Shown here in pieces: positions 25,037-63,600 of a DNA stretch of 64,000 bases; the first letter of the stretch is position 1, and each line of letters starts with the position of its first letter. The translations under genes and the position numbers were made by a program. A model generated the notes under the pieces. That model saw nothing but the letters and a program-made list of their open reading frames with translations. It was not told where the DNA came from and ran no database searches. The DNA is from Squalus acanthias. Taxonomy: Eukaryota. Where the stretch lies: contig CM059432.1 of assembly GCA_030390025.1 (NCBI GenBank), positions 58,902,001-58,966,000 on the forward strand, in the 5' to 3' direction.

Positions 25037-25296
25037 GACTGACCTGATTGTGTCTCTGCCGAAGTGTGATAAAAGGCAGTCAGAAAGATTAACTGTAGTC
25101 GTCTGACATTGTACGCTGCACAGGCATTGATCTCTGTCTATATATGCTTTGCCGATTCGTATTCCTTCACTTCACCTGACGAAGGGGCAGCAGCTCCGAA
25201 AGCTTGTGATTTCAAATAAAACTGTTGGACTATAACCTGGTGTTGTGCGACTTCTCACTTTTGTCCACCCCAGTCCAACACCGGCATCTCCGCATC
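25037..25296 (+). mobile_element. Penelope-like terminal-repeat fragment with hammerhead motif
   Basis: 12-bp TSD acagttttttat (25025-25036, 25297-25308); homologous to ~33180-33401; hammerhead core present. Confidence 0.75.
25172..25209 (+). ncRNA. Minimal type I hammerhead ribozyme motif
   Basis: tcac-CTGACGA-a-ggggc(agca)gctcc-GAAAGCTT-gtga: stem I tcac/gtga, stem II hairpin, palindromic AGCT in place of stem III. Confidence 0.8.
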
Positions 25297-28480: not shown

Positions 28481-28930
28481 CAGTGCAGATTAAGAGGCAA
28501 TATGATAGAATTATTTAAAATTATGAAAAAGTAGTTAGCAGACTATTTCCAGTTGTTGAACGGTCCAGAATGAGAGGCCATAGATACAAAATTAAATGTA
28601 AGAGATTTAGAACAGAGCAAGAAAACTACAGTGTTGTGAAGCTACGGAATTCACTTCCAGGGTTAGTGGTTGAGACAGGAATTGTCAACATTCAAGGTTA
28701 AATTGGATTGGTCGGTGAAGGAATCGGGAGTGAAAGGATACAGGAATGGGGTCGGGGTAGATACAATTATAACTTTGTTCACATGACAGGTAAACGCCAA
28801 CACACACTAGTTGGGCCGAATCGCCAGTTTCCATGTTGTGTCTTCTGTGTACTATGCAAGAAATGTGGCAGCATGGAAACAGAGTGCGGTGCCATGAAGA
28901 CGGGCCACAGGAGAGCCAGTGGAAGAGAAT

Positions 28931-29463
28931 ACGATAGCAAAATACTGCGGATGCTGGAAATCTGAAATAACAACAGAAAACGCTGGAAAAACTCAGCAAG
29001 CCAGGCAGCATCCGTGGAGAGAGAAACAGAGTTAACGTTTCAGGTCGAAGACCCTTCGTCAGAATTGGAACAAAGCAGGAAATGAAATAGATTTAAAGCA
29101 AGTATAATGCTGGGAAAAGGGGGAGGGGATGAAAGAACAAAGGGGAAGGTCAGTGGTAGTATAGAAGGCAGGAGAGATTAAGAGACATTAAGAGATATTC
29201 AAGGCGAGAGGAGGTGGTAATGTGACAGGTTGAGACTGGATGAAGTGTGAAGTGCACTGGCAGGATGAAGTGTGAAGTGCACTGGCAGAATGAAGGACAG
29301 CTGCCAGCTTCAGGAGGTATATATATATATATATATATGAGAGAGATAGAGAGATCGTTATGTGATAGGGGCCGTGGTTATGATCTGAAATTGTTGAACT
29401 CTATGTTGAGTCCAGAGGGCTGTAGCGTGCCTAAACGAAAGATGAGGTGCTGTTCCTCGAACT
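28931..29463 (-). mobile_element. Penelope-like element 3' fragment
   Basis: Homologous to 43825-44230; 12-bp TSD gtggaagagaat (28919-28930, 29464-29475); hammerhead core at 29030-29066 on minus. Confidence 0.82.
29238..29353. repeat. 25-bp tandem duplication followed by (TA)n(GA)n microsatellite
   Basis: gatgaagtgtgaagtgcactggcag twice, then tatatata... and gagagagatagagaga. Confidence 0.8.
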
Positions 29464-29606
29464 GTGGAAGAGAATGTTGTGGTCAACCATATTGTAGGCA
29501 GTATAGAGGACAAAGATTGACAACAGCATGGTTGTTGTCACACATTGGTTGAAGCCACTGTCCTTATCTATTTGTGGGTGAGTTACTGTTCATCGGGCAA
29601 ACTTAT

Positions 29607-34737: not shown

Positions 34738-37700
34738 ACGATTTTAGAATTCAGCAAAGGAGGACCAAGAAATTGATAAAGAAAGGGAAAATGGAATGAG
34801 AGTAAACTAGCGTGGGGCATAAAAACAGACTATAAAAACTTCTATAGGTATGTAAAAAGGAAAAGATTAGCGAAAGTAAATGTGGGAACCTTACAGGCTG
34901 AGACAGGAGAAATTATAATGGGGAATAAGGAAATGGCAGAGAAATTAAACAATTACTATGGCCGCGAATTTGCCGGCGCTCAGAGGGCAGGTTTCGAGGT
35001 GGGCCTGCTGTCAAAATAGCAAAGATTGACAGTGGGTAGGAAACCTGCTGTCAACCCGCCTCCACGCGAGTCTCCCAGGTGTCGGGTCTGTCAGCGGAGA
35101 ACTGACCTGACACCAAGCGGTGGGGGAGACAATTGAGCATGTTAAATGGCTTGTTAAGAGCCAATTTAATACTATTTTGAGGCTTCCTTGCAATTTTACG
35201 TTTTCCCCCACAGGTTACCTGCTGTTCGGGGAACACGTCAGCTCAAGCTGGCGTGATTTGAGGCTGTTCTGATGTTTCTGATACGCTGACAGCTGCAGAA
35301 GTGGTGTAAAGGATGGCATGTTGCAGATGGTCAGTTTCAGAGCACAGAAAATGTTGGTTACTGCATTTTTAAAACATATAGAGATTTCTTTAGCTTATAA
35401 GTTTTTAGATCCAACTGTATGTCCAGTGCCACCTCATTGGGAGAGCTCTCTCACTGTTGACATTGCTTCTGTCTTCTCACCTGCAGCTGCCATCTATTGC
35501 AGCAACATCAGTGCCTTTGAAAAAATAAGACCTTGGTCCTCTGAATCCCTCCACGATCAGCCCCAACACCAACATCACCAGGCTCGCCAACCTTCTCCGC
35601 CATCATCTGATGCTGCACTGGACACAGGGCATCAGCCCCTGACAACATTGCTGCCCGGGAGGCCAGCGATGGCATCACCATGGCCAGATTTTCTTCACTT
35701 GATGCTGTAAACCCTGGCTGCCACATGATGCGCCAGGTTGACACCATCCCACACCAGCACCGTGAAGCATCCCTTTAATGTCCAAGCCATTCCATGCACA
35801 CTCCTCACTATAGGGGGGGGGCGGATGTTATGTCTGAACAATCACTGGAACTCAGTAAGACACTTCTCAATGTGTGTGCAGATCTGACAATAAGGGGCAG
35901 TTTTGGAAAAATAGATTTCACTGTATGACAGCACATTACCAGAAACTTCACATGGACATTGGCTAAACCTCTCAAGTGCCTACCCTTGTGTGTTGTTAGT
36001 TGGTATGCTTGCAGTAGGATGAGGGTGAGTGTGAGGGGTGGCTAGTGAGATGGGGAAATGATAAAGTAGATAGAGAGGGATGGGTGGAGGTGCAAGGTAA
36101 GTTGGTGTGAGTTAGGATGTGCAGGAGAAGGGTAGGGAAGGCAGAGTGATGAGGATGTGTTGAGTGGCACAGCAGGGTGAGTTTGAGTGTGGCTTTGCAG
36201 TAACGTTTCGTGATCCACTGAGATCATTAAAAGGTTTGCGCCACTGCAGCCAGGGACCCCTGACGACATCCCTGCTTGTGTCTTCCTGTGCAATGTGCAA
36301 CCAGGCTGCGTTGGTATCCTGGGGAGGGAAGAGAACCTAACTGCATGCTGTGACTCTCTCCATAAGCATATGGAGGGAGTCATTGGAGCGCCTGCGTGCA
36401 AGCATCCACCTTTATGCAGTGCTTGTCAGTGTTTGCAGTACCTCAATGCTGTTAAACACTGACAGAATAACTGTCAAACTCCATGTGGGCGTGGTCCCTT
36501 TAAGGAAACCGGCTGATGACATGTCATCAAATGACATCATCAGACCCGCTTCCTGTTAATTGACCAGGAAGCCCACAGGGCGGGCTTAACAAGGCCAATC
36601 AAGGTAAAATCCCGTTTACAGAGCGGCTGCAGCCAGGTTCATGACTGGAACCCGGCAAACAGCTCTCCCGCTACCATCCCGCCTCTGTTGGGAAATTCGC
36701 AGCCTTTGTGTCTGTCTTCACGGAACAAGACGCAAAATACCTCCCGGAAATAGTGGAGAACCAAGGGTTTAGCGAGAATGAGGAACTGAAAGAAATAAGT
36801 ATTAATAAAAAAATAGTACTGGAGAAATTAATGCGACTGAAAGCCGATAAATCCCCTGGACCTGATGGCCTACATCCTAGGGTTTTGAAAGAGGTGGCTA
36901 TAGAGATAGTGGATCCATTGGTTGTCATCTTCCAAAATTCCATAGATTCTAGAACGGTTCCCGCAGATTGGAAAGTAGTAAATGTAACCCCACTATTTAA
37001 GAAAGGAGGGAGAGAGAAAATGGGGAACTACAGACCAGTTGGCCTGACATCAGTAGTAGGGAAAATGCTAGAATCTATTATTAAGGACGTGGTAACAGGG
37101 CACTTAGAAAATAATAATAGGATTGGGCAGAGTTAACACAGATTAATGAAAGGGACATCATGTTTGACAAATCTGTTAGAGTTTTTTGAGGTTATAACTA
37201 GCAGAATAGATAAGGGGGAACCAGTGAATGTGGTGTATTTGGATTTTCAGAAGGCATTCGATAAGGTGCCACACAAGAGGTTATTGAACAAAATTAGGGC
37301 CCATGGAATTGGGGGTAATATACTAGCATGGATTGAGGATTGGTTAACGGACAGAAAACAAAGAGTAGGAATAAACAGGTCATTTTCAGGCTGGCAGGCT
37401 GTAACTAGTGGGGTACCGCAAGGATCAGTGCTTGGGCCTCAGCTATTCACAATCTATATTAATGATTTGGATGAGGGGACCAAATGTAATATATCCAAGT
37501 TTGCTGATGATACAAAGCTAGGTGGGAATGTAAGTTGTGAGGAGGATGCAAAGAGGCTTCAAGGGGATATAGACAGGCAAAGTGAGTGGGCAAGAACATG
37601 GCAAATGGAATATAATGTGGAGAAATGTGAAGTTATTCACTTTAGTAGGAGAAATAGAAAAGCAGAGTATTTTTTAAATGGTGAGAGATTGGAAAATGTT

Positions 37701-37950
37701 GGTATTCAGAGGGACCTGGGTGTCCTTGTACACGAATCACTGAAAGTTAACATGCAGGTACAGCAAGCAATTAGGAAATCAAATGGTATGTTGGCCTTTA
37801 TTACAAGAGGATTTGAGTATAAGAGTAAAGACGTCTTACTGCAATTATATAGGGGCCTGGTGAGACCACACCTGGAGTATTGTGTACAGTTTTGGTCTCT
37901 ACCTAAGGAAAGATATACTTGCCTTGGAAGGGAGTGCAAAGAAGGTTCAC
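34738..37950 (+). mobile_element. Second CR1 ORF2 segment (RT), interrupted by a Harbinger derivative
   Basis: Restarts ~460 bp upstream in CR1 coordinates; KSPGPDGLHPR, NYRPV, DFQKAFD, QGSVLGP, FADDTK; 3' end truncated near 37950. Confidence 0.9.
34960..36704. mobile_element. PIF/Harbinger internal-deletion derivative, copy 2
   Basis: TIRs ggccgcgaattt / aaattcgcagcc; flanks tat/ttt; removing it restores CR1 codons NNY|FVSVF; Myb-like remnant WLQWRKPFNDL on minus. Confidence 0.88.
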
Positions 37951-38940: not shown

Positions 38941-40300
38941 AATTTGTTCCTGGGATGTGAGCATCACTGGCAAGGCCAGCATTTATTGCCCATCCCTAAT
39001 TACCCTTGAGAAGGTGGTGATGAGCCGCCTTCTTGAACCGCTGCAGTCCATGTGGTGAAAGTACTCCCATAGCGCTGTGAGGAAAGGAGTTCCAGGATTT
39101 TGACCCAGCGACGATGAAGGAACGGCGATATATTTCCAAGTCAGGATGGTGTATACCTTGGAGGGGAACTTGCAGGTGATAGTGTTCCCATGCGCCTGCT
39201 GCCCTTGTCCTTCTAGCTGGTAGAGGTCGCAGGTTTGGGAGGTGCTGTCGGAGAAGCCTTGGCGAGTTGCTGCAGTGCATCTTGTAGATGGTACACACTG
39301 CAGCCACGGTGCGCCAGTGGTGGAGGGAATGAATTTTTAAGGTGGCGGATGGGGTGCAATCAGTCGGGCTGCTTTGTCCTGGACGGTATCGAGCTTCTTG
39401 GTGTTGTTGGAGCAACACTCATCCAGGCAAGTGGAGAGTATTCTATCACACTCCTGACTTGTCTTTTGTAGATGGTGGAAAGGCTTTGGGGAGTCAGGAG
39501 GTGAGACACTCGCCGTAGAACACCCAGCCTCTGACCTGCTCTAGTTGCCACATTTATGTCATAGAGTCATAACGGCACAGAAGGAGGCCATTCGGCCCAT
39601 CGAGTCCATGCCAGCTCTCTGTAGAGCAATCCAGTCAGTCCCATTCCCCCGCTCTATCCCCGTAGCCCTGCAAGTTTATTTCCCTCAAGTGCCTATCCAG
39701 TCTCCCCTTGAAAACATTGAGTGTCTCCGCTTCCATCACTTCCGTCGGCAGCGAGTTCCAGGTCCTCATCACTTGCTGCGTAAAAAAGATTTTCCTCACG
39801 TCCCCTCTGTATCTCTTGCCCAAAACCTTAAATCTGTGTCCCCTAGTCCTTGTACCATCAGCTAGTGGGAACAGCCTTTCCCCGTCTAGCCTATCCAAAC
39901 CTGTCATAATCTTGTACACCTCTATCAAATCACCCCTCAACCTCCTTTACTCTAATGAAAACAAATCCAGCTTCTCCAACCTGTCCTTGTAGCTAAGATC
40001 CCCCATCCCTGGAACCATTCTGGTAAATCTCCTCTGCGCCCTCTCGGGCCTTCACATCCTTCCTAATGTATGGTGACCAGAACTGGACGCAACACTCCAG
40101 TTGTGGCCTAACCATCGCTTTATAAAGATTCAGCATAACTTCTCTACTTTTGTACACAATACCTCTATTTATGAAGCCCAAGATCCCATATGCTTTGCTA
40201 ACCACTCTCTCAATACTTCCCGCCACCTTCAGGGACCTATGCACATTAACTCCCAGGTCCCTCTGTCCCTGCACACTCTTTAAAACTGGGCCATTAAGTG

Positions 40301-41113
40301 CACCATCATCCCATTTGTCTCTTATCTCTCCTGCCTTCCATCCTATCACAGACCTTCCCTTTTGTTCTTTCCTCCCCTCCCCCCCTTTCCGTGCCCCTGC
40401 ACTTGCTTAAAAACCTGTTCCACCTCCAGCTTTTTCTCGTTCTAACGAAGGGTCATCGACCTGAAACGTTAACTCTGTTTCTCTCTCCATAGATGCTGCC
40501 TGACCTGAGTATTTCCAGTATTTTCTGTTTTGTTTCAGATTTCCAGCATCCGCAGTATTTTGCTATTGTATTAGTGTTTAATTCACTGCTACTTCTCTTC
40601 TAAGAATGCCCACCTTGAAGAAGTTCTGCTCTTCTCTCCGACAGGATTTCCGTTTGTCTCTTTTACCTTGTTCATCTTCATTGCTTTCTGTTTCCCTTCT
40701 CGTGTTTGATCTGCCCCTATCTTTTTTTTTTCCCTTCTCTCTCACATGGCAGTTGTCTTTCATTCTGCCATCGCCATTCACACTTCATCAAGAGCCATCT
40801 TTTGTTTCTTAACTTGTCCAATTATCATCTCCTTTTGCCATGCACCATCATCCCTTTTGTCTCTTAATCTCTCCTGCCTTCCATCCTATCACAGACCTTC
40901 CCTTTTGTTCATTCCTCCCCTCCCCCTTTTCCCTGCCCCTGCACTTGCTTAAAAACCTGTTCCATCTCCAGCTTTTACGAGTTCTGACGAAGGGTCATCG
41001 ACCTGAAACGTTAACTCTGTTTCTCTCTCCACAGATGCGGCCTGACCTGCTGAGTATTTCCAGCATTTTCTGTTTTTGTTTTCGATTTCCAGCATCCGCA
41101 GTAGTTTGCTTTT
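40301..41113 (+). mobile_element. Non-autonomous Penelope-derived element with two ~270-bp direct repeats
   Basis: 10-bp TSD ccattaagtg (40291-40300, 41114-41123); repeats at ~40299-40566 and ~40841-41112, each with a hammerhead-like motif. Confidence 0.88.
40979..41017 (+). ncRNA. Minimal type I hammerhead ribozyme motif
   Basis: gagtt-CTGACGA-a-gggtc(atc)gacct-GAAACGTT-aactc: stem I gagtt/aactc, palindromic ACGT. Confidence 0.8.
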
Positions 41114-43824
41114 CCATTAAGTGTATATTGCCTCTCCCTGTTCCTTCTGCCAAAATGCATCACCTCACACTTCTCTGTATTAAATTCCATCTGCCACTTG
41201 TCTGCCCATTCTGCTAGCCTTTCTATGTCCCGTTGCAGTCGATTGGTATCATCCTCACTGTTTGCCACACCCAAAAGTTTGGTGTCATTGGCAAATTTCG
41301 AAATTCTACTCTGTATTCCAATATCCAGGTCATTTATTTATATATATATATATCAAAAAAAGCAGTGGCCCCAGCACTGACCCTTGGGGAACACCACTGT
41401 CTACCATCCTCCAGTCTGAAAAACAGCTGTTTACCACAACTCGCTGTTTTCTGTCCTTAAGCCGATTCCTTATCCAAGCTGCCACTGACCCACCTATTCC
41501 ATGGCCTTAATTTTGTTAACCAGCCTTCTATGTGGTACTTTGTCAAATGCCTTCCGAAAATCCATGTAGACAACATCCATTGCATTCCCTTCATCAATCC
41601 TCTCTGTTACTTCATCAAAAAATTCAATTAGATTAGTCAAACGTGATCTGCTTTTTACAAATCCGTGTTGGCTCTCCTTAATTAGCTTAAACCTCTCCAA
41701 GTGCCTGTTAATTTTTTCCTTAATTATTGTTTCTAAAACATTTACCCACCACTGATGTTAAACTGACCAGCCTGTAGTTACTAGGATTGTCCTTACACCC
41801 TTTCTTGAACAATGGTGTCACATTTGCCATTTTCCAATCCTCAGGCACCTCCCCCTGCATCTAGGGAAGATTGGAAAATTATGGCAAGCCCTTCTGCTGT
41901 CTCCTCCCCCCAATTCCCTTAGCAACCTGGGATGCAAGCCATCTGAACCAGGCGACTTATCCACTCTAAGCATACCCAGCCTTTCTAGTACATCCTGTCT
42001 ATCAATTTTCACCCCTTCCATTGCTTCTACCTTTTCCACTTCTACCGATATTTTGTCAGCATCCACCTCCTTAGTAAACACCGATACAAAGTACTCATTG
42101 AGTATTCTAGCCTTGCCCTGCGCCTCTAAGCATATATCATCTTCTTTGTCCCTAATAGGCCCCATCCCGCCTCTTACTACCCACTTACTGTTTACATGCA
42201 GGTAGAAGATTTTTGGGTTCCCTTTTATGTTAACCGCCATTCTACTCTCATATTCTCTCTTTGCCAATCTTATTTTCATCTTCACTTCCCCTCTCAACTT
42301 ATTGTATTTGGTCTGGTTCTTCCTTGAAGAATTCACCTGACATTCATCATACACCCTCTTTTTTTGTTTCATCATCTTCTCAATCTCCCTCTTCATCCAA
42401 GGATCCCTTGCTTTGGTTCCCTTACTCTTCCCTCTTGTTGGAATGTACCTAGCCTGTACTTGGAACATCTCCTCCTTAAAGATCACCCATTGTTCCGTTA
42501 CAGTTTTTCCTGTCAGTCTTTGGTTCCATTTTGCCCTGGCTCGATCCATTCGCATCCCATTGAAGTTAGCCCTATTCCAGTTTAGAAATTCCACTCTAGA
42601 TTGTTCCTTGCTCCTCTCCATTGCTAATCTAAATCTTATAATACGATGATCACTCATACCCAAGTATTCTCTCACAGATACTTGGTCGACGTGGCCCACC
42701 TCATTCCCCAGCACCAGATCCAACAATGCCTCCTTCCAAGTTGGACCAAGAACATACTGGTCCATGTGGCTGGTCCAGTTAAGTTTCTAATCAATGGTGA
42801 CCTCCAGGATGTTGATGGTGGGGGATTTGGCAATGGTAATGCCGTTGAATGTCAAGGGGTGATGGTTAGACTCTCTCTTTTGGAGATAGTCATTGGCTGT
42901 CACTTGTGTGGTGCAAATGTTACTTGCCACTTATCAGCCCAAGCCTGAATGTCATCCAGGTCTTGTTGCATGCGGGCATGGACTGCTTCATTTTCTGAGG
43001 AATTGCGAATGGAACTGAACACTTTGCAATCCTCAGTGAACATCCGCACTTCTGACCTTATGATGGAAGGAAGGTCATTGATGCAGCAGCTGAAGATGGT
43101 TGGGCCTAGGACACTGCCCTGAGGAACTCCTGCAGTGATGTCCTGGGGCTGAGAGGATTGACCTCCAACAACCACAAGCACCTTCCTTTGTGCTAGGTGT
43201 GACTCCAGCCAGAGGAGAGTTTTCCCCCTGATTCCCATTGACATCAGTTTTACTAGGGCTCCTTGATGCCACACTCGGTCAAATGCTGCCTTGATGTCAA
43301 GGGCAGTCACTCTCACCTCACCTCTGGAATTCAGCTTCTTTGTCCATGTTTGTACCAAGGCTGTAATGAGGACTAGAGCTGAGTGGTCCTGGTGGAACCC
43401 AACTGGGCATCAGTGAGCAGGTTATCGGTGAGTAAGTGCCGCTTGATAGCACTGTCAACAACACCTTCCATCACTTTACTGATTATTGAGAGTAGACTCA
43501 AGGTGTGGTAATTAGTCGGATTGGATTTCTCCTGCTTTTGTGTGCCAGAAAGTGTGGGAGCAGTCTTCTTAACTTTAACAACCATGTTCTTTGAGCAATG
43601 CTCCTGGCATTGGCATTCTCTTCCCACTGTCTCTTCAGTAGATGCCTGGAGGGCTTCCTTCCCCCTGGGGGAAAAGGGTGTCCCATCTCCTGTCCACTGC
43701 CTGCACCAAGGCCTCCAGTGCAGCAGCAGAGAACCTTGGTGCCCGCTCGCTCCTTCCTTCAGCCATTTGCTCAGCAACTTGTTTTTGTGTCTCTGCAGTC
43801 AGAATACACCTCCCCTTTAAGAGA

Positions 43825-45575
43825 ATAGCAAAATACTGCGGATGCTGGAAATCTGAAATAACAACGGAAAATGCTGGAAACACTCAGCAGGCCAGGCAGC
43901 ATCCGTGGAGAGAGAAACAGAGTTAACGTTTCAGGTCCGTGACCCTTCGTCAGAACTGGAAAAAGTTAAAGAAGTAACAGGTTTTAAGCAGGTGCAGAGG
44001 CAGGGAAAGGGGGGAGAGGGGAGGAAGGAACTAAAGGGACAGTCTGTGCTAGGATTGAAGGCAGGAGAGATTGAATGTTGCAAATAGGAATGGCAGAATC
44101 ATCAACAGCTGCCACCTGAAAAATGGGGGGGGGGATATAGTCTGAAATTGTTGAAATCAATGTTGAGTCCAGAAGGCTGTAAAGTGCCTAATCGAAAGAT
44201 GAGGTGCTGTTCCTCGAGCTTACATTGAGTTTCATTGGAACAGTGTAAGAGGCCGAGGTCAGAGTGGGAGTGGAGCGGAGAATTAAAGTGACAAGCGACC
44301 GGAAGCTCGGGGTCACTCTTACGGACTAAACGGAGGTGTTCCGCAAAGCGGTCACCCAATCTGCGTTTGGTCTCCCCAATGTAGAGGAGACCACATCGTG
44401 AGCAGCGAATACAGTATACTAAATTGCAAGAAGTACAAGTAAATCGCTGTTTTACCTGGAAGGGGTGTTTGGGGCCCTGGACAATGGGAAGGGAGGAGGT
44501 GAAAGGGCAGGTGTTGCATCTCCTGCGCTTGCACGGGAAGGTGCCGTGGGGAGGGGAGGGGCTGTTGGGGGTGATTGAGGAGTGGACCAGGGTGTTGCAG
44601 AGGGAGCGGTCCCTTCGGAATGCTGAAAGGGGAGGTGAGGGGAAGAGGCGTTTGGTGGTGGGATCACGTTGGAGGTGGCAGAAATGGCAGAGGATGACCC
44701 GTTGAATGTGGAGGCTGGTGGGGTGAAAGGTGAGGACAAGGGGAACCCTATCGTGGTTCTGGGAGGGAGAAGGGGTGAGAGCAGAAGTGCGGGAAATGGA
44801 ACGGGTATGGTCGAGGGCCATGCCAACCAAAGTAGAGGGGAATCCTCGGTTGAGGAAAAAGGAAGACATATCGGAAGCACTGGTATGGAAGGTGGCATCG
44901 TCAGAACAGATGCGGCGGAGACGGAGAAACTGGGAGAATGGAATAGAGTCCTTACAGGAAGCGGGGTGGGAGGAAGTGTAGTCCAGGTAGCTGTAGGAGC
45001 CAGTGGGCTTGTAGTAGATGTTTGTCGATAGCTTATTGCCAGAAATGGAGACAGAGAAGTCAAGGAACGGAAGAGAAGAGTCAGAGATGGACTATGTGAA
45101 GCTGAGGGAAGGGTGGAAATTCAAAGCAAAGTGAATGAAATTTTCTAGTTCAGGGCGAGAGCAGGAAACAGCGCCGATACAGTCATCAATGTACCGGAAA
45201 AAGAGGTGAGGGAGGGGACGTGAGTAGGACTGGAACAAAGACAGGCATAGCTAGGGCCCATGCGGGTTCCCATAGCAACACCTTTAATTTGGAGGAAGTG
45301 AGTAGAGTCAAAGGAGAAGTTGTTCAATGTGAGAACAAGTTCAGCCAGGCGGAGGAGGGTGATGGAGGATGGGGACTGGTTGGGCCTCTGTTCAAGGAAG
45401 AAGCGGAGCGCCCTCAGGCTGTCGTGGTGGGGGATGGAGGTGTAGAGGGATTGGACGTCCATAGTAACTTTTTCCAGTTCTGACAAAGGGTCACAGACCT
45501 GAAATGTTAACTCTGTTTCTCTCTCCATGGATGCTGCCTGGCCTGCTGAGTGTTTCCAGAATTTTATGTTGTTAT
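43825..45575 (-). mobile_element. Penelope-like element (partial RT and GIY-YIG endonuclease) with inverted terminal repeat
   Basis: TMDVQSLYTSI, GVAMGTRMGP and LVYCIRCSRCGLLYIGETKRRLGDRFAEH; 45465-45575 is an inverted copy of ~43857-43968; 14-bp TSD tcccctttaagaga. Confidence 0.93.
43921..43957 (-). ncRNA. Minimal type I hammerhead ribozyme motif
   Basis: Minus strand reads agtt-CTGACGA-a-gggtc(acg)gacct-GAAACGTT-aact. Confidence 0.75.
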
Positions 45576-46114
45576 TCCCCTTTAAGAGATGCTGGCTGCC
45601 ATTAAATAGCAGATTGGATCCCTGATATCAGCCCCCTATAGGCGTACAGCCAATAAATAGCGCTAGCTGCATTAACGGATGATTACAATTAGCAGGCAGC
45701 ATTGGGAGACCTGGATGACATCTGTATTGATAGTACCTAGCATGGGGCGTGCCCAACCTGCCCCGATCCAATTTGTTGGCCATAATTCAAGAATACAGCG
45801 ATATCACTTCTTGTGTAAATATTTTTAATCTTCGAAAAAATTAATTTTTGAAAAAAAAAGTTATCATGAGTTCAATAATTTGCATTTGTGCATACACAAT
45901 TTGGAGGTGTTATAGCACAATCAGCTATAATTCTTCCAACTGAAATTAATGGATGTAAAACAGAAAATTTACTGAACTTTGCTGTACCTATACACAGTTT
46001 TCACATGGTGCTTTTTTAATTGCATTTTCTGAAGCCGGATTGAGTATTCCGTGATATCTTGAACACCGTTAAAAAAAAATAAAAAAAATTCTATGTCAGA
46101 ATCATTGGTAATTT

Positions 46115-46262
46115 AAACAAAAAGCAAAAACTGCAGATACTGGAAATCGGAAACAAAAACAAAAAATGCTGGTAACACTCAGCAGGTCAGTCAGCATCTG
46201 TGCAGAGAAAAGACAGGTCAATGTTTCATTGTAGACCCTTTCTACACCTGAAACATTAACGT
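46115..46262 (-). mobile_element. Degraded Penelope terminal-repeat fragment
   Basis: gcaaaaactgcagatactggaaatc...ctcagcaggtcag, similar to 43825-43930. Confidence 0.65.
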
Positions 46263-46414
46263 ATCATCAGTAATTTATTCATAATTTTGTAAGAATTTTA
46301 ATATTCACTTCATGTTAATTTCAATGCAAAATGTGATTGATTTATTTATAATATATTTTTAATTTGTTAAGCACATCAAAAGGCTGCCAAGTATAATTAG
46401 CTGCAACTCATATC

Positions 46415-48760: not shown

Positions 48761-49169
48761 ACCTTGATGTCGTGAGAAGGCTTGCGTGCTCCTATGATCT
48801 TGAGAGCTATGCTGGTGGGTGTATAACATCTGTTGGGGCTACTCAAGGCAGTCAATCGGCCTCCTGGTAGGCGGTTATGAGTCAGGCTAATGACCTGTGT
48901 GGTAACACAATACAGCTTCCTGTGACTCGAACTTTATTGCATCACTTCCTGTGATTAGTCCAGGATAAATACTGGACTGATCAGTTGGATCCTGGAGAGG
49001 CATAGAGTAAGACCTCTTTTGTATGTAGCACCTTTTTAGTTGATTAAAGCTTACTTTAAGTTCACCACGCGTAAGGCTCATTCTTACGACAATTTAATCA
49101 ACTTTGAAAAACTTCGTACTCAAACTTTTTGGACGAACTCGGAACTAAGGATCCAGGGAATCACCCATC

Positions 49170-50855
49170 ATGGAAAACATCCTTAAACCATCGCGTCTTG
49201 ACTTGGACCCAAACACCCCAGCAGCCGGTAAGGTGTGGAAACACTGGTATCGCACGTTTGACAATTTCCTTGAGTATTGCAAGGCTGATGATGACTCAAA
49301 GTTGCGGATACTCATCAACTGTGTCACCCCGAATGTATTTCAGTATGTGGAGGAATGGGACAGTTACGAGGAGGCAATTCGGAAGCTTAAGAGACTATAT
49401 ACTAAGACACTGAATGAGGTCTATGCCAGACATCTACTAGCTACAGCCCAACAAGGGCCGGAGGAATCCATTGATAAATTCCTCCAAGAGCTTCGCAGAC
49501 TTAGTATGGACTGTAACTTTCGGGCGGCCTCGGCTGAGCTGTACCGTGAAGAGATGATCCGTGATGCTTTCATCTGCGGGCTTGCCTCCCCATTTATACG
49601 CCAGCGTCTACTGGAAAGTAAGACACTTGAGCTTCAGAGAGCTTATGACATGGCTTGCTCTCTAGATCTGGCAAAAAGAAATGCAGACCTTTATACAGTG
49701 CCCAGACCTCGGTCTACTGCCTTAACTACAGTCAGGCAATTTAAGAGGCCACAGGTGAACTCTATTAGGGAGGTCTTTATCCCTGACGATCAATCTGATG
49801 ACTTCACTGATGAAGAGGATGATGACCCCACTGTGGCAGCCTCTTGGCAATCTAAGAAATGCTTCTTTTGTGGTGATGAGTTTCACCCTCGGAAATTCTG
49901 CCCTGCTCGCAATGCGTTTTGCAGTCATTGCAACAAAAAGGGTCATTTTGCAAAGGTTTGCCTATCAAGAGCCTCTACAAGGGCTTATCAAGCTAAGTCC
50001 TACCGAACTGCCCCGGTAAGGGCCTATCAAGATGTTCCGGCTAAAATCTATCGTGCTTCCTCTTGGGTTTCCTCTCGAAGAAACACACCTAGAGTTTCAG
50101 CCACTCTTTGTGCAATGACACCAATTACAGCTGCTTGTCCTCAGAACCTATTCCATGCAGCTACAAAAGCATCAATTAATGGACATACTTTAGATGCCTT
50201 AATTGACTCAGGTAGCACTGATAGTTTCATTAGGGAACAGATTGTTGCAGAGTTAAAGCTACATTTTTTCCCATCGGACCAGGCAATTGCGATGGCTCAG
50301 TCATCACTTAATACCAGAATTTCTGGCTTTTGTATGGTTGAAATAACACTTAATGGTCACAGGTATCCCTCCACCCGGCTTTCGGTGCTCAAGGACTTAT
50401 GTAGTAATCTTATCTTAGGGCTGGATTTTCAAAAGCAGCATAAGAAGCTCACCATTGAGTTCGGCGGACCCAAACCTGAACTCACTATTTCTAATATACA
50501 ACCTCGATTACCGTTCTGTGCATTGTCAGCAGCTTCACTGGATGAACCCTCACTGTTTACCAGTATCCCTCCTCGATGCAAACCGATTATAACAAAGTCA
50601 CGACATTTCAGTCAGGAAGACCAGTCTTTTATTGCGGCTGAGATTTCTCGGCTTTTAGCAGAGGATATCATCGAGCCTTGTTCGTCGCCATGGCGCGCCC
50701 AGGTCGTTATTGTTAAGAACCCTCTACAACCTCACAAGAAACGGCTGTGCATTGACTATTCACAGACCATCAATCAATATACGGACTTGGACGCATACCC
50801 ATTGCCATGGTTAATAAACTGGCTGAGTACACGGTGTTCTCAACATATGATCTGA
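49170..50855 (+). CDS. Gypsy Gag (two Cys/His knuckles), aspartic protease and RT N-terminus
   Basis: CFFCGDEFHPRKFC, CSHCNKKGHFAKVC, LIDSGS, SSPW, RLCIDY; frame broken after YPLP. Confidence 0.9.
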   Translation: MENILKPSRLDLDPNTPAAGKVWKHWYRTFDNFLEYCKADDDSKLRILINCVTPNVFQYVEEWDSYEEAIRKLKRLYTKTLNEVYARHLLATAQQGPEESIDKFLQELRRLSMDCNFRAASAELYREEMIRDAFICGLASPFIRQRLLESKTLELQRAYDMACSLDLAKRNADLYTVPRPRSTALTTVRQFKRPQVNSIREVFIPDDQSDDFTDEEDDDPTVAASWQSKKCFFCGDEFHPRKFCPARNAFCSHCNKKGHFAKVCLSRASTRAYQAKSYRTAPVRAYQDVPAKIYRASSWVSSRRNTPRVSATLCAMTPITAACPQNLFHAATKASINGHTLDALIDSGSTDSFIREQIVAELKLHFFPSDQAIAMAQSSLNTRISGFCMVEITLNGHRYPSTRLSVLKDLCSNLILGLDFQKQHKKLTIEFGGPKPELTISNIQPRLPFCALSAASLDEPSLFTSIPPRCKPIITKSRHFSQEDQSFIAAEISRLLAEDIIEPCSSPWRAQVVIVKNPLQPHKKRLCIDYSQTINQYTDLDAYPLPWLINWLSTRCSQHMI

Positions 50856-51844
50856 AAAGTGCCTATCATCAGGTACCCTTGAAGGTCTCAGACAAGCAGT
50901 ATACGGCCTTTGAAGCCAATGGACGGCTGTATCAATTTCGTCGCCTCCCCTTTGGGGTCACTAATGGAGTGGCTGTCTTCCAGCGAGCAATGGATGAACT
51001 GGTCAAACAGGAAGACTTGAAGGATACGTTTCCTTATCTGGACAATATTACTGTCGCAGGTCACAATCAGCGGGAACATGACGCCAATCTCCAACGATTT
51101 TGGGATGCACTCCAGCACCGTAATTTGACATTAAATGCGGCTAAATCCATTGAGTCACAACCAACCATCAACATCCTTGGCTATTGTGTGGGCAATGGCA
51201 TCATTAAGCCTGACCCTGAAAGGCTTCGCCCACTCCAAGAACTCCCGCCACCTAAGAATCCGGCCTCCTTGCGCCGGGCCCTCGGCCTGTTTGCATACTA
51301 TGCTAAATGGATTCCTAACTTCTCGGACCGAATCCAACCTCTACTGAAGGCTAGCACATTCCCACTAGACACAGCGGCTGTTGCAGCCTTTAACCTCCTG
51401 AAAAAACAGTTGGAGAAAGCGGCTCTTCACTCCATCGATGAGAGTCTTCCTTTTGTTGTTGAGTGTGATGCCTCGGAGGTGGCGATCTCGGCCACTCTGA
51501 ATCAGGAAGGTCGTCCGGTGGCATTTTTGTCCAGGACTTTTCAAGGGGCTGAGCTACATTATCCTCCAGTCGAGAAAGAAGCTACAGCCATCATAGAGGC
51601 AGTACGGAAGTGGAGTCATCTCCTAGCTCGCCAGCACTTTACCATAATCACGGACCAGCGATCGGTCGCCTTCATGCTCGATAATCGAAAACGGACCAAA
51701 ATTAAAAATAATAAAATCCAGCTTTGGCGGCTGGAATTGGCCTCCTTTGGTTACACCATCCACTATCGACCTGGCAAGGAGAATGTGGCTCCGGATACCC
51801 TCACACGAGCATTCTGCTCCGCCATGGCACCTCTACGCTCGTAG
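50807..51844 (+). CDS. Gypsy RT and RNase H (frameshifted continuation)
   Basis: DLKSAYHQ, LPFGV, YLDN, VECDAS, EKEA, TDQ, YRPGKENVAPDTL. Confidence 0.9.
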   Translation: MVNKLAEYTVFSTYDLKSAYHQVPLKVSDKQYTAFEANGRLYQFRRLPFGVTNGVAVFQRAMDELVKQEDLKDTFPYLDNITVAGHNQREHDANLQRFWDALQHRNLTLNAAKSIESQPTINILGYCVGNGIIKPDPERLRPLQELPPPKNPASLRRALGLFAYYAKWIPNFSDRIQPLLKASTFPLDTAAVAAFNLLKKQLEKAALHSIDESLPFVVECDASEVAISATLNQEGRPVAFLSRTFQGAELHYPPVEKEATAIIEAVRKWSHLLARQHFTIITDQRSVAFMLDNRKRTKIKNNKIQLWRLELASFGYTIHYRPGKENVAPDTLTRAFCSAMAPLRS

Positions 51845-53076
51845 ACATCCATGATGGGTTGTGTCATCCGGGCGTTACTCGCATGCTACACTTCGTGCGG
51901 TCCCGAAATCTCCCATTCTCTACCGGGGATGTAAAGAAGATGTGCTCGGACTGCAGAGTCTGTGCGGAATTGAAACCTCAGTTTTTCCGCCCCTCGGGTG
52001 GTATACTCATACATGCGACCCAGCCAATGCAACGGCTTAGCATCGATTTTAAGGGGCCGTTGCCCTCTTCAACTCGCAACACTTATCTGTTGACCATGGT
52101 CAATGAGTATTCCCGTTTTCCATTTGCCTTTCCCTGCCCCAATATGCTGACGACCACGGTTATCAGCTGCCTTGAGCAGGTATTTGCTTTCTGTGGCATG
52201 GCATCCTATGTTCATTCGGATCGGGGCCCTTCTTTTATGTCAGGAGAACTCAAGGCCTATCTCTCGGAACGGGGTATTGCTGCCAGCAGAACGACGCCTT
52301 ATCATCCGGTCGGGAATGGGCAAGTCGAGCGTTTTAACGCTATCATCTGGAATGCGGTACGTCTGGCTTTGAGATCTCGGGGCCTACCCAACCAGCAATG
52401 GGAAGCAGTACTTCCAGACGCATTACACTCCACACGGTCCCTCCTTTCGACCGCCACAAATACGACGCCTCATGAACGGTTCTTCCGATTTCAGCGTCGC
52501 TCATCCTATGGAATATCTCTCCCGTCGTGGCTGACTACACCGGGACCAGTGCTACTCCGAAGATATGTCCGGGCGTCTAAGAATGACCCCCTGGTAGATG
52601 AAGTTGAGCTCACTGACGTCAACCCTACCTACGCCTATATTCGGTATCCTGACGGTCAGGAATCTACCGTGTCATTGCGGGATCTGGCTCCCTGCCCGCC
52701 GAAACATAGAGGGACACCAGGGGATGATATTGTACCAGGCACATCTCTGGGCTTGCCAGGTGCCTCTCATCACGATCTGGATCTGACGCCGGCTGGTACC
52801 TCACTCCAGCGTGCCGACCTGGGGCAGACTGACTATGAGCCCGTCGGGGCTCGCACGCGCAGCCACGATCCACCCCGTACCGTACGCTCGGAAACGGATC
52901 TGCCACAGCCCTGCCCGACACCCGTTCGGGCACCAGTACACAGTCAGGATCGTCCTGACCCCTCACAGAGCGGGCTGGATCACTCGGACTCTGGTCCACG
53001 GCCCGCGGCGGGTAAACGGGCTAGGGGCCCTCTACCGCTACGAGAACCCAAACGGGTGCGGCTCTCCCTCGTTTAG
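51830..53076 (+). CDS. Gypsy integrase (frameshifted continuation)
   Basis: HHCC (HDGLCHPG..CRVC), SIDFKG, HSDRG, NGQVER; Pro/Arg-rich tail; no chromodomain or env recognised. Confidence 0.9.
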
Positions 53077-53782
53077 CGGCTACGAAATGGAGGGAGCATC
53101 CCGGCCTCCTAATCTTTTGGGGGGGGAGAATGTGGTAACACAATACAGCTTCCTGTGACTCGAACTTTATTGCATCACTTCCTGTGATTAGTCCAGGATA
53201 AATACTGGACTGATCAGTTGGATCCTGGAGAGGCATAGAGTAAGACCTCTTTTGTATGTAGCACCTTTTTAGTTGATTAAAGCTTACTTTAAGTTCACCA
53301 CGCGTAAGGCTCATTCTTACGACAACCTGTTCACGTAAAAATGTATTTAGTCACAGAAGCAACCAGAGACAAGGTGAGTCTATTACAGACTTGCAAATAT
53401 ACACATCAACTGTGGAGAACCATGATCTGCAAGATGATACACTGACGGAGTCAAATATCTTACTCTGGACAAACAGCAGTGGAAGAAATGGGTTACGTCA
53501 TATGCCGCTAGGCACAGGAGACTCTAACTATCTAACAGACTATCGCTGCACCCTCCTCCAGTCTTATTGTTCCTTCCACACACCTTCTGACTCTGACTTT
53601 GAACTTCTATCTATTCTGCCCTACCTTCGCTTACCATTGGTGGTAGATCCTTTGGCCGTACTTTCTGGAACTCCTTCCCTTTAATTCTCTACTCTCTTCA
53701 TCTTGAAAAAAATATTAAAATCCATCTTTTTGACTGAGCATTCTCATCCTAACTCTTCCTCCTTGATCCATCCCACTATCTA

Positions 53783-54482: not shown

Positions 54483-56135
54483 GGCCAGAATTTTGCCGGC
54501 GCTCAGAGTGTGGGTTTGGAGTCGTGTCCGCTGTCAAAATCACAAAGATTGACAGTGGGTCGGTATCCCGCTGTAAACCCGCCTCCTTGTCAGATTCCCA
54601 AGTGTCGGGTCTGCCATCCCTGAACGGACCCGACACCAAGCGACGGGTCAGCCAATTTAGATAGTTTAAAGCTTATTAAAAGGTAGTTAAGAACCATTTC
54701 CCCATGTACTTAACATTTTACCAGGTTTTCAATGAGGTTCCCAGAGAGTGGCTATCATGTCAGGTAAGTATGTCTCAATGACTGTGGATTGCTGTGAATA
54801 GGTGAAAGCTGCAAAAGTGGTCTAAAACCTACCATTTCACAGCTGTTCACTTTCCAATCTTAGAAGCTGGAGCATTAATGATTTGGAACCCACTTTTGAG
54901 CTTTATGCACTTTTGAAGTGTTTGGAATAATCTCTCTATCCACTGTCACCTCCTTGGAACAACCTATCTCAACATTGACAGATTACTTCTGTCATCTCAA
55001 CCTCACCTGCCATCTATTCCATCAGTGTCAGTGCCTTTGAAAAATTCTCACCATGGTCCTCAGAATCCCAACACGATCAGCCCCAACAGCAGCATCACTG
55101 GGCACACCAGCAGCACCAACATCCACACCAACCTTCTCTGCAATCAACTGATGCTGCACTGGACACAGGGCATCATTACCCGAGCACATTGCTGCTCGGG
55201 ACGCCAGTGATGGCCTCACCATGTCCAGATTTGCTTCACTTAACACTGTACACCCTGACTGCCACATGATGCACCAGGTTGGCACCACCCCACACCAGCA
55301 CCATAAAGCATCCCTACAATGTCCAAGCCATTCCTTTCACACTCATCACCATTGGGGGGAAGCTATGTCTCACCATTCACTGGAACTCACTAAGACACTT
55401 TCAAAGGTGCACACAAATCTGTCCAAGAAGGCAAAGTGGTGATAATAAGGATTTCAATGCTTGACACCACATTAACAGAAAGTTTACATGAACATTGGCT
55501 AAAACACCCAAGTGCCTACCCTTGTGTGTTGTTAGTTGGTATGATTGCACTAGGATGAGGGTGAGTGTGAGGGGTGACTAGTGAGATGGAGAAGTGATAA
55601 TATAGATAGAGAGGAATGGGTGGAGGTTCAAGGTAAGTTGGTGTGAGTAAGGATGTGCAGGAGTAGGGTAGGGAAGGCAGAGTTATGGGGATGTGATGAG
55701 TGGCACAGGAGGATGAAGTTGAGTGTGGCTTTGCAGTAACGTTTCGTGATCTACTGAGATCATTGAAAGGTTTGTGCCACTGCAGCCTGGTCCTCCTGAC
55801 GACATCCCTGCTTGTGCCCTCCTGTGCAATGTGCAACCAGGCTGCGTTGGTGTCCTGGGGAGGTCTCTTCCGCATATGGAAGGAGTAATGGGAGAGCGTG
55901 GGTGCAGGTGTGCACCTTTCTGCAGTGCTTGTCAGTGTTTGCAGCACCTCAATGCTGCAGAACACTGACAGCACAACTGTCAAAATCAATTTGGACATGG
56001 CCTCTTTAAGGAAACCGGCTGATGATGCTTAAAAAGCCCAATCAATGTAAAATCTTGTTGGAGGCCGGGATCAAGACAGATGCCAGGTCCCCACAAGCCA
56101 CGGACATCGCCCGCCCCGAATGGAAATATCCAGCC
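54483..56135. mobile_element. PIF/Harbinger internal-deletion derivative, copy 3
   Basis: Starts ggccagaattttgccggcgctcagag (as copy 2), ends aaatatccagcc; Myb-like AWLHIAQEGTSRDVVRRTRLQWHKPFNDL on minus. Confidence 0.85.
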
Positions 56136-60679: not shown

Positions 60680-63600
60680 CCATTAAAACAAAACTGATGC
60701 ATAAAAGGGAGGCATAGGGTAAAATTAGAGCCAGCAATAACAAAGAAAATCACAAGGCATATAGAAAATGTAGTGGAGAGGTGAGAAGGGAGATTGAAAA
60801 CCTAAAAAGGAATCTGGAAAAGACTAACAGATAATATAAAAGGAAATAGTAAGGGCTTTCATAAGCATATAAAAAGTAAAATAATTCATAGTTAAAGAGA
60901 GGGTAGGACTGCTCAGAGATGGAAGAAGGAGTCTAATTGTAGATGATCAAGGTCTGGCAGAGATATTGAATAAATATTTTGCATTAGTTTTTATGAATGA
61001 TGGTGGAAGTGTACTAGAGGAAGAACTGTTAAAAATAATTGTAGAAAAGGAATTGGTTCTGAAAAGATTAGCAGGCCTTAAAGGACAAGAAATTCGTTTG
61101 CCCCTGAAAACAGGTGCGGGGCTCGCGATGCGCAATCAATGCCCTTCGGAGGAATGCATGCAAACTTTGTGCTGCCTGCTCATTTCCATGATTGTGACAT
61201 TCAGCCCAGCACTAAATGCGCTGCTGAGTGGCTGAATGCTCAGCCGGGGACCAAGTTTGTGTGAGGCTAGCACCATTTATAGCCTGCACTACTTAAAGGC
61301 AGTCTGTACTTCTTAATGGGGAGGTGTATTCTCCCTGCAGCAGCTCTTTGAACTGGCTGGGAAGACAGTGAAGAACAATTAATGATGACACAACAGGGGA
61401 GACAGCGTGCACAAAAGGTTCTCAGATGCAGCACTGGAGGCCTTGATGCAGGAGGTGGATAGGAGGAGAGAGGTCCTCTTTCCACAGGGGGCCAGGAGGC
61501 TCTCCAGACAACAGTGCAAAGTGCAGTGGGAGCAGTGCAGGAAGAAGTTTAATGACCTCACACAAGTGGTCAAGGTCAATGAATTCATCTTCAAATGCCA
61601 TATCCCACCATCTGCACCACTAGCCTCACACATTGCTTAATGCACCACACCCCATCACTCACCTACCAACAATCTCTACTAAATACGACTCATACCTCAC
61701 ATTCATAGCTTCACCTCACCCTCACACACTTATCACTGCTCTGAGCCTCACACCCACATCTCACAGCTTGCAAACACTGGCAGCTATTCAACCATGACAG
61801 GCACATCACCCAAACACATTGCACCACACCCACTGACACACTTCCCTTTCTCTTGCAGGAAAAAGGTGGCTTATAACCGGTACCAGCAGCACGGCGAGTG
61901 ACAACCTCGCCTGCATAATCTTACCACCATGGAGGAGACAGTGCTGGCCATTCTTGGGAGGGGCATCGCTGAGCAGCGGGGCTGAAAGAATACAAGTTGC
62001 CAGTATCCTCATACGTAATCCTCCTTCTCACATCCCACTTTCCCTCATTCCACAATCTCTTCTGATTTACAAGCTGCACATGGTGTAAGCATGCACCTCT
62101 TGCTTTCCCCTCTCCTTCACCACAACCCTGCCCTTGTCCCATTCTCATTTCAGAGACCCAAGAAATCCAACCTGCCCAGCCAGTGGTGCAAGAACAAGAG
62201 GGAGAGGAGAGTGATGAAGAAGAGGAAACACCGTCACTCGATCTGACACTCACAGCCACCAGCTCAGATATTGGCACTGCGCGTAGTTTAGAGGGTAACT
62301 TAGAGCGGGATCTGCACATGATGAGTCACCGGGCATGAGTGGGCTGCAGCCAGGGAAGGGGGAAAGAGTAGCGGAGGTGTCATCTCTCCAGAGGGCAAGG
62401 TCACACACGAGTTCTGCAGCAGAAGACTCAGGTGAGGACTTCGATGGGGCGGCCTACAGAAGAACGCTGATGGGTATGCACAACAAAATGCTTGGTGCAT
62501 TGGAAGGCCTGCCAGAAAGCCTGAGTGCAATGTCAAGGAGCATGGAGGAGTCTGGCACCAACCTTGCACAGGGCTTTGCACAGAGCTTGGAGCCCATGTT
62601 GCAGATGTCGCTCCAGCCTGGAAGGATCCTGACACAAAGAAATTCAGGGTCATGGTCACCTTTATAGCCATTGGCAGTGCTGTCCTTGCCCTGGTGTGAG
62701 GCTGCATGTCTGGTTGCAAGAGGTGGCAGAGTTCTGTGAGCACCTCCTTCGTAAAGCACAGCTGCCTCACACACTGCTCCTGGCTCAGGCTGAGGTGAGA
62801 GAATTGCTCTTGGAAGACCCCAGGTCGGTAAGGCCTCCTGCTGAGAGCCCTCCTCCTCCTCCTCCTCCCTCTGCGAGCAGCTTGTCCTCTTCTTCACTGC
62901 CTCTGCTCCATCTCCCTGTCATGATGCAGGTCAAGGGGGTTGACAACTAGAGCACCCATGACTGGGAGCAAGTGGTCGGACCAGAGCCCTTGAAGTCAGA
63001 ACCAAGGCCTTCTCCACTTGCAGCACCACTCACTGTCATCTCAACAACTTTAAACAACTCTAGAAAGCTCCAAACACTTCCACAAACTTACACAGCCAGT
63101 AGAAATGAATCAGCAACTAACCTGTAGGTAGGTGATGTTCCCTTTAAATATCGCTGGTGGGCGGGTTCTTGCAGCTGCTGATCACATGTTCAGCTGTGCG
63201 AGGTTAATACAGAGCTTTTAGTTCTAACGTTGAGGATGAAATAGCAGCGTGGCATCAAATCATCGTGTGACGTCACCATCTGCCTACTCTACATCTGGTG
63301 CATGCTCCCAACGCCGAAGTTAACGCCCTCTCCAAGATGACGTCTGGTGCGGGACGCACCAGAACTGTGTGCATGCGGCGCAGACGCCATTTTCATCACA
63401 AAACCGCACCCGTAGTGTCGAAAAATAGGGCGCGATGGAGCCAAATTTCGAGCCCAAAGTCTCTGGGCCTTGATGACTGGCACACGAGGGCATTGAAAGA
63501 AGTCAAAGAGGAGACAGCTGAGGTTCTGGTCATAATTTTTCAATCCTCATTCAATATGCAATTTGTGCCCTGGACTGAAGAGTATCTAATATAACACCTT

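Follow-up and report, generated by a model that had tools for sequence, protein, structure and literature searches.

An 813-bp insert at 40301-41113 of the 64-kb window (the whole stretch of DNA that was analysed) carries a hammerhead motif in each of two direct repeats. This raises the question of whether it is a retrozyme-like element, whose ancestral RNA released a ~542-nt unit that was then copied by a Penelope-type reverse transcriptase (RT), as a sequence-only reading had proposed, or a by-product of a Penelope-type element (PLE). The most likely answer is a decayed, one-off deletion derivative; rather probably, it stems from an abundant PLE of shark type by loss of internal sequence, and is itself present once or a few times.

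The insert and its internal junction

The features of the locus, including the pseudo-LTRs (pLTRs) and the target-site duplications (TSDs), are as follows.

39800..41900 (approximate), minus strand: host, an older decayed LINE-type retrotransposon, broken near the end of its RT ORF
40291..40300, plus strand: 5' TSD, CCATTAAGTG
40301-41113: the insert, 813 bp, flanked by the TSD CCATTAAGTG
40301..40570, plus strand: upstream pLTR, a 5'-truncated PLE 3' end with 3'UTR, hammerhead and ~100-nt tail
40439..40473, plus strand: upstream minimal type I hammerhead, core CTAACGA starting at 40442, G5A at 40444, stem I of 3 bp
40571..40605, plus strand: PLE 5' leader, from the tail to the start codon
40606..40710, plus strand: PLE ORF codons 1-35, 32/35 identical to P0079, a shark PLE N-terminus
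40711..40712 (give or take a few nt), plus strand: deletion junction, placed by contig stops and the end of the protein match
40712..40842, plus strand: PLE 3'UTR, beginning within a few nt of the autonomous family's ORF stop
40843..41113, plus strand: downstream pLTR, whose 3' end is the fixed RT start of the family, 101 nt beyond the hammerhead cut
40979..41017, plus strand: downstream minimal type I hammerhead, intact CTGACGA core starting at 40984, stem I of 5 bp
41114..41123, plus strand: 3' TSD, CCATTAAGTG

The 813-bp insert and its 10-bp TSD, both of which had been noticed from the letters, are borne out by an empty site. When the flanks are fused over one TSD copy, the joined sequence matches two of the three paralogous LINE copies in the window throughout and the third on one side only. 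In addition, 25 contigs from sequencing run X1 and 49 from run X9 diverge at 40300 into the sequence that follows the downstream TSD. The length of the TSD is 8-10 bp, as the final TG of CCATTAAGTG can be assigned to the repeat instead. A chance repeat was rejected as its source, since an exact repeat of at least 10 bp occurred in only 5/2000 random pairs of 50-bp windows at similar spacing. The host LINE retains ORFs at 39993-40406 and 41818-42786, with paralogues at 8613-9552 and 36927-37950, and we take it to be of the CR1/L2 type.

The two ~270-bp direct repeats lie 542 bp apart, as previously described (~40301-40570 and 40843-41113), and differ by 18 mismatches in 266 aligned columns (93% identity, or 92% by blastn with gaps); the upstream one also has a private 3-nt deletion after 40504. 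With its repeats ~7% apart, the copy has decayed since insertion. The upstream pLTR is 86-89% identical to the PLE 3' ends at 43825-44072 and 28931-29190, and the pLTRs form a partial tandem of the 3' end, in which the upstream repeat is 5'-truncated and is followed by the leader and the ORF start.

The leader is multi-copy in runs X1 and X9, where contigs continue from the tail into the ORF start. P0079 was the sole match in two protein searches with the 35-residue fragment. Beyond the fragment, P0079 aligns with P0010 and P0016, PLE proteins of 904 aa, from their residue 1 onward (E about 1e-10), and its continuation matches an N-terminal PLE profile (E 2e-17). A custom profile of PLE N-termini, built from 26 proteins and run on 2032 six-frame pieces, missed the fragment itself, which was also not significant against 77 relatives by phmmer or blastp; thus, the assignment to a PLE came only through P0079. 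The protein match ends at codon 35, and among the contigs listed from X1 and X9, four end their match at 40711 and one at 40708. On the other side, the truncated PLE copy at 28931-29463 has a 3'UTR to which 40747-40870 aligns, and GCCCCTATC (40713-40721) sits 5 nt past its ORF stop. The frame from 40606 enters the 3'UTR past the junction and stops after 68 codons.

Judged by its alignments, the element runs from a partial pLTR through the leader into the ORF start, and beyond a deletion of ~2.6 kb come the 3'UTR and the other pLTR; the size of the missing ORF part is estimated from relatives of 889-904 aa. The internal deletion that had been suspected is therefore supported and can now be placed at ~40711. 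The core had been described as free of RT and endonuclease; neither domain is present, yet codons 1-35 of a PLE ORF are. An unrelated captured sequence was rejected as the source of the core because its halves are a PLE ORF start and a PLE 3'UTR. The description of the insert as non-autonomous, PLE-derived and dependent on a Penelope-type RT also finds support.

The parent family and the search for further copies

Three other TSD-bearing copies of the family lie in the window, all of them 5'-truncated.

43825..45575, minus strand: 5'-truncated PLE of autonomous type, with an RT remnant, GIY-YIG and the same pLTR; 14-bp TSD at 43811-43824/45576-45589
28931..29463, minus strand: 5'-truncated PLE with ORF end, 3'UTR and pLTR; 12-bp TSD (28919-29475 with TSDs)
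46108-46277, minus strand: older truncated PLE copy with a degenerate hammerhead core; likely 8-bp TSD

The parent family carries an ORF with RT and GIY-YIG (44102-45465), and in the part at 44102-45091 a C-x4-C-x2-C motif precedes the GIY-YIG. A Zn-finger-like motif between RT and endonuclease is described for Neptune and Nematis (PMC8557442). The motif suggests that the parent family probably belongs to the Neptune clade. Among named relatives, those of highest identity are proteins annotated in sharks, and the DNA is repeat-rich.

Several unrelated repeats are also present in the window. At 48898-53325 (plus strand), two identical terminal repeats of 195 bp bound a young element that resembles an LTR retrotransposon, presumably of the Gypsy type; its protease, RT/RNase H and integrase domains are spread over three frames that overlap. 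Three related repeats of ~1.5 kb (4912-6509, 35035-36636 and 54492-56025) are 76-80% identical, and a decayed ORF is found at 62300-62918, for which Pfam gave no match at 62300-62893. Both the repeats and this ORF resemble parts of Harbinger-type transposons.

In all four TSD-bearing copies in the window, including the insert, the 3' end is fixed at 101, 100, 103 or 104 nt beyond the hammerhead cut. The insert starts 170 nt before the upstream cut site and ends 101 nt past the downstream one. Together with the other ends 100-104 nt past the cut, this indicates that a linear RNA running from cut to cut was not the template. Such a 542-nt RNA was rejected by the end positions in 4/4 of these copies, and the proposal that a released ~542-nt unit served as the copied template is not supported. 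With the linear unit impossible, the template must have been an uncleaved longer RNA or a circle. The target sites (40291, 43811, 28919 and 46108) are AT-centred, with ATT in 3/4 and TTAA in 2/4.

The repeats of the insert are closer to each other (93.8%) than to the other copies (85.6-88.5%), and both share five states against both neighbouring copies. Of 24 sequencing runs, 20 match part of the stretch (best share of sampled words, 0.48; X1 and X9 perhaps come from other species), and none of these is recorded as RNA. Whether the junction recurs was examined in four of the 24 (X1, X9, X15 and X23), which were aligned to 40150-40860; X15 is only guessed to be RNA and consists of contigs, which do not reveal strand, ends or circles, and X23 (raw reads) gave an uninformative 21 reads. 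In X1 and X9, which are shark-type DNA runs with deep coverage, the ORF start is multi-copy, with summed depths of 95,709 and 44,350, respectively, at 40678-40701, just upstream of the junction. At 40722 the summed depth, which is not a copy number, is 369.6 in X1 and 253.1 in X9. Depth on the junction side is thus at least 175-fold under that of the ORF-start bin in both runs, in part because this stretch of the 3'UTR varies between copies. None of the 24 pieces listed from X1 and X9 bridges the junction (107,192 further pieces lie beyond those listed), and one contig in each run aligned over 40722, with a common 2-nt gap.

No second core fragment was found within the 64-kb window. The ORF-start pattern hit seven loci in JGI metagenomes, all of them chance 20-22-bp matches without further likeness, and the pLTR pattern hit no locus in viral contigs and none in prokaryote genomes. 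A protein search with the 68-residue junction-spanning frame found it in 0/2 candidates and was uninformative.

Other patterns in the contigs concern the pLTR. Many contigs begin matching at 40439/40451, shortly before or within the hammerhead core, with dissimilar upstream sequence (220 in X1; 364 and 210 in X9), and depth peaks at 40462-40485. These starts may mark either a hot spot of 5' truncation or many subfamilies that have only the hammerhead and tail in common. Contig joints that go back along the stretch were rejected as a sign of circles, since they are expected of any 3'UTR-to-pLTR sequence on a stretch with one repeat.

Dimer hammerheads and routes of origin

The hammerhead cores at 40442 and 40984, the upstream one reading CTAACGA with a change at a core G, hold up in both motif and pairing. 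In each, the core is followed by stem II, GAAA, the palindrome ACGT (40466-40469 upstream, 41008-41011 downstream) and a GUU cut triplet, which ends at 40470 and 41012, respectively. The A at 40444 is private to this copy; G makes up 97.7% (X1), 99.7% (X15) and 98.6% (X9) of the summed contig depth at this position, and G5 is the ancestral state of the upstream core. The G5A change is described to abolish hammerhead cleavage (PMC4027429). In the 64-kb window, Rfam gave no match that reached the gathering score; for 40200-41200, with E up to 10 allowed, there were two chance matches (E about 2) but none to a hammerhead family, so the ribozyme call is based on motif, family context and the literature.

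The ACGT palindrome and the missing loop III agree with the earlier view that these are minimal hammerheads of the dimer type. As there is no space for loop III, the motif can act only as a dimer, and in dimers of minimal PLE hammerheads each core is described as cutting its partner's site (PMC4209133). For the downstream core on the upstream site, pairing is predicted over 5 bp in stem I and 4 bp in stem III, whereas the upstream core has G5A and a stem I of 3 bp. With the upstream core dead and stem III swapped, only the upstream site would be cleavable; in this model, a present-day dimer would cut at most the upstream site in cis and would not release the 542-nt unit. A second minimal-hammerhead family occurs at 25176 and 33314 (plus strand), with the stem III palindrome AGCU, not ACGU, a compensatory change that is consistent with dimer pairing.

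Folding predictions were also made. Within the 813-nt RNA as a whole, the cis stem III is predicted to form with a probability of ~0.0001, in a model that excludes tertiary contacts and proteins, and cofolding of three pairings never placed the hammerhead dimer at the minimum energy, a result of low weight. The 542-nt unit is 71% pyrimidine and does not fold better than shuffled sequences, either as a circle (MFE -69.1 kcal/mol, 39% of bases paired, z -0.64 over 60 shuffles) or in linear form (z -0.91; 15/100 shuffles equally good).

The simplest account of the insert, and the one that we favour to a modest degree, is a single insertion in which ~2.6 kb was skipped in copying or was already absent from the donor. 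The RT/GIY-YIG protein of an intact element would have nicked an AT-rich site in the old LINE, and reverse transcription would have begun at an internal position, in the tail of a tandem transcript that had escaped cleavage. After ~400 nt had been copied, ~2.6 kb of the ORF would have been skipped, by a template jump or through a donor deleted beforehand; the ORF start and the next pLTR upstream would then have been copied before synthesis stopped, leaving 1.5 units and the 10-bp TSD. Splicing was a further cause considered for the deletion. The hammerheads would be ordinary passengers of the pLTR, unneeded for the insertion step. Fixed 3' ends ~100 nt beyond the cut are the expectation under internal initiation by the RT, and the neighbour at 43825-45575 displays template switching, with an inverted pLTR piece of ~110 bp fused directly to its truncated RT ORF at the 5' end. 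Partial tandems and inverted 5' pieces are described as standard PLE products (PMC8557442). For an anole PLE, the one PLE studied in vitro, RT is reported to start at fixed internal sites with unprocessed RNA as the main substrate, and hammerhead mutants still insert (PMC11167929). Two hammerheads in two repeats are normal for any PLE (PMC4209133), so their pairing here comes by inheritance and does not point to a retrozyme cycle. Against this account, a circular template would yield an identical 1.5-unit product.

Such a circle belongs to a viable form of the model from the sequence-only reading. In this form, an ancestor that carried the deletion but had both hammerheads intact would have formed the dimer in cis and released a 542-nt unit; the unit would have circularized, and a PLE RT would have gone round it 1.5 times. 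Ordinary inheritance from a PLE accounts for every feature, however, and we regard this retrozyme-type cycle as very improbable. There are only 1.5 units and no array, the unit is poorly self-paired (39%, z -0.64), the cis stem III has a predicted probability of ~0.0001 and the upstream core is now G5A. Furthermore, minimal PLE hammerheads are described as weak cleavers even as dimers (PMC4209133), and eight of nine Xenopus dimer elements were without cleavage in vitro (bioRxiv 10.64898/2026.07.22.740005). These points outweigh those that would allow the cycle: the ACGU palindrome permits a 4-bp swapped stem III, stem I is possible between copies (5 bp when the downstream core pairs at the upstream site), G5 is ancestral and an insert of 1.5 units is expected of a circle, a route that has been proposed for PLEs (PMC4209133). 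The 542-nt length also falls inside the 51-972-bp consensus range of vertebrate retrozyme families (bioRxiv 10.64898/2026.07.22.740005).

Deletion in place would give the same anatomy and TSD. Here a full-length PLE (~3.4 kb including the upstream partial pLTR) would have inserted and ~2.6 kb would have been lost later in the chromosome, so that the 813-bp form was never mobile. The copy is old enough for this (18 mismatches in 266 columns plus indels), and a bridging contig is absent among the pieces listed. However, 5' truncation marks all three other TSD-bearing copies in the window, and the insertion of a full-length element with a later large loss would thus take two uncommon events; RT template switching, in contrast, is seen in the neighbouring copy. 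We therefore consider deletion in place unlikely. An amplified non-autonomous family, a PLE counterpart of the R2 SIDEs whose copies would be made in trans, with linear transcripts of a tandem master as template, seems to us less probable again, given that junction-side depth is at least 175-fold lower in X1 and X9, no listed piece bridges the junction and the 64-kb window has no further copy. What speaks for it is that the unit retains the tail, leader, ORF start and 3'UTR, and that the region needed in cis in the anole PLE spans the pLTR-ORF junction (PMC11167929). The closeness of the two repeats (93.8% compared with 85.6-88.5% to other copies), their five shared states and the one contig per run that crosses 40722 in X1 and X9 point the same way, and non-autonomous PLEs with pLTRs are known in Chlamydomonas (PMC8557442).

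It is quite doubtful that the 542-bp unit represents a real shark non-autonomous family, with its ORF deleted but its leader, ORF start, 3'UTR and dimer-type hammerhead retained, and spreading in trans as 1.5-unit, LTR-retrozyme-shaped inserts, possibly via circular RNA. If it did, a retrozyme would have been born from a PLE via ORF deletion and not via pLTR amplification. If the junction were recurrent, it would define a SIDE- or retrozyme-like family in cartilaginous fish with known parent and breakpoint, and the short unit would be a handy construct for the question of whether PLE RTs use circular or uncleaved linear templates. A search of literature that included few subscription journals found no paper devoted to the shark family or to the 40711 junction.

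Comparison with known systems

The closest likeness is to the EN+ PLEs described in PMC4209133, which also have two direct pLTRs with a minimal type I hammerhead in each. Those hammerheads resemble the present ones in their short stem I, the extra base after A9, the palindromic 15.2-16.2 and the dimer type. There, however, the motifs are ~3 kb apart, whereas here the distance is 542 nt, the ORF is down to 35 codons and one core is G5A. The insert has the partial-tandem pLTRs, a hammerhead in each pLTR (the upstream one mutated) and the fixed 3' end of such elements, and it is missing the single ORF with RT and C-terminal GIY-YIG. With only the 35 N-terminal codons left in a family that has an ORF, it is a deletion derivative and not an autonomous PLE. 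Compared with PAc, the Poseidon PLE of Anolis carolinensis described in PMC11167929, the insert is alike in its fixed 3' end downstream of the cut and in the AT-rich target (here ATT in 3/4 TSDs). In PAc, however, the ORF starts within the hammerhead and RT starts within the ORF, while here the ATG lies 136 nt beyond the cut and copies stop short of it. A further difference from PAc is that the related ORF carries a cysteine motif between its RT and its endonuclease, which suggests Neptune.

Animal retrozymes are described as non-autonomous PLE derivatives (bioRxiv 10.64898/2026.07.22.740005), and metazoan non-LTR retrozymes share with the insert their non-coding nature, a type I hammerhead per unit and a PLE origin (PMC7229834; bioRxiv 10.64898/2026.07.22.740005). 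They are reported from one chondrichthyan genome, with a mean consensus of 363 bp (bioRxiv 10.64898/2026.07.22.740005). The insert likewise has no protein-coding capacity (a 68-codon remnant frame) and a TSD of more than 4 bp (10 bp). Two consecutive complete hammerheads, in contrast, are absent today (G5A, 3-bp stem I), although they were present ancestrally. The metazoan retrozymes described in these sources form tandem arrays, whereas here there are 1.5 units and the window yielded no second copy; their circles are highly self-paired (PMC7229834), and the 542-nt unit is not. The insert also differs from them in having arisen by ORF deletion and not from the pLTR alone. Self-cleavage and the accumulation of unit-length RNA, both linear and circular, are further traits by which metazoan retrozymes are defined. 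Plant LTR retrozymes are alike in having two ~300-bp hammerhead repeats, a short non-coding core and a TSD, but as described they have type III hammerheads, a 4-bp TSD, PBS/PPT and dependence on Gypsy elements (PMC6765202; bioRxiv 10.64898/2026.07.22.740005). A retrozyme of the plant LTR type was rejected on the type I topology, the 10-bp TSD and the core ends, which are a PLE leader and a PLE 3'UTR. The likeness to retrozymes is thus one of shape, and the insert lacks two metazoan and two plant retrozyme features among those tested. The earlier label of a retrozyme-like element stands for the outward form, but not for two complete hammerheads or a self-paired unit.

Other precedents are MRC1 and the 2.8-kb internally deleted Chlamys-3_cRei (PMC8557442) and the R2 SIDEs (PMC6765202), which are likewise ORF-less or internally deleted with both ends kept. 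The non-autonomous Chlamys PLEs also have pLTRs that mimic an LTR element (PMC8557442), and the Naiad/Chlamys clade is reportedly without canonical hammerheads. MRC1 (PMC8557442) and the SIDEs (PMC6765202) are demonstrated mobile families, whereas the 813-bp insert is known from one copy. Earlier publications already cover the presence of hammerheads in both pLTRs, the circle hypothesis (PMC4209133), partial tandems, PLEs with internal deletions (PMC8557442) and the descent of animal retrozymes from PLEs, and the insert is an ordinary member of a described kind, the internally deleted PLE.
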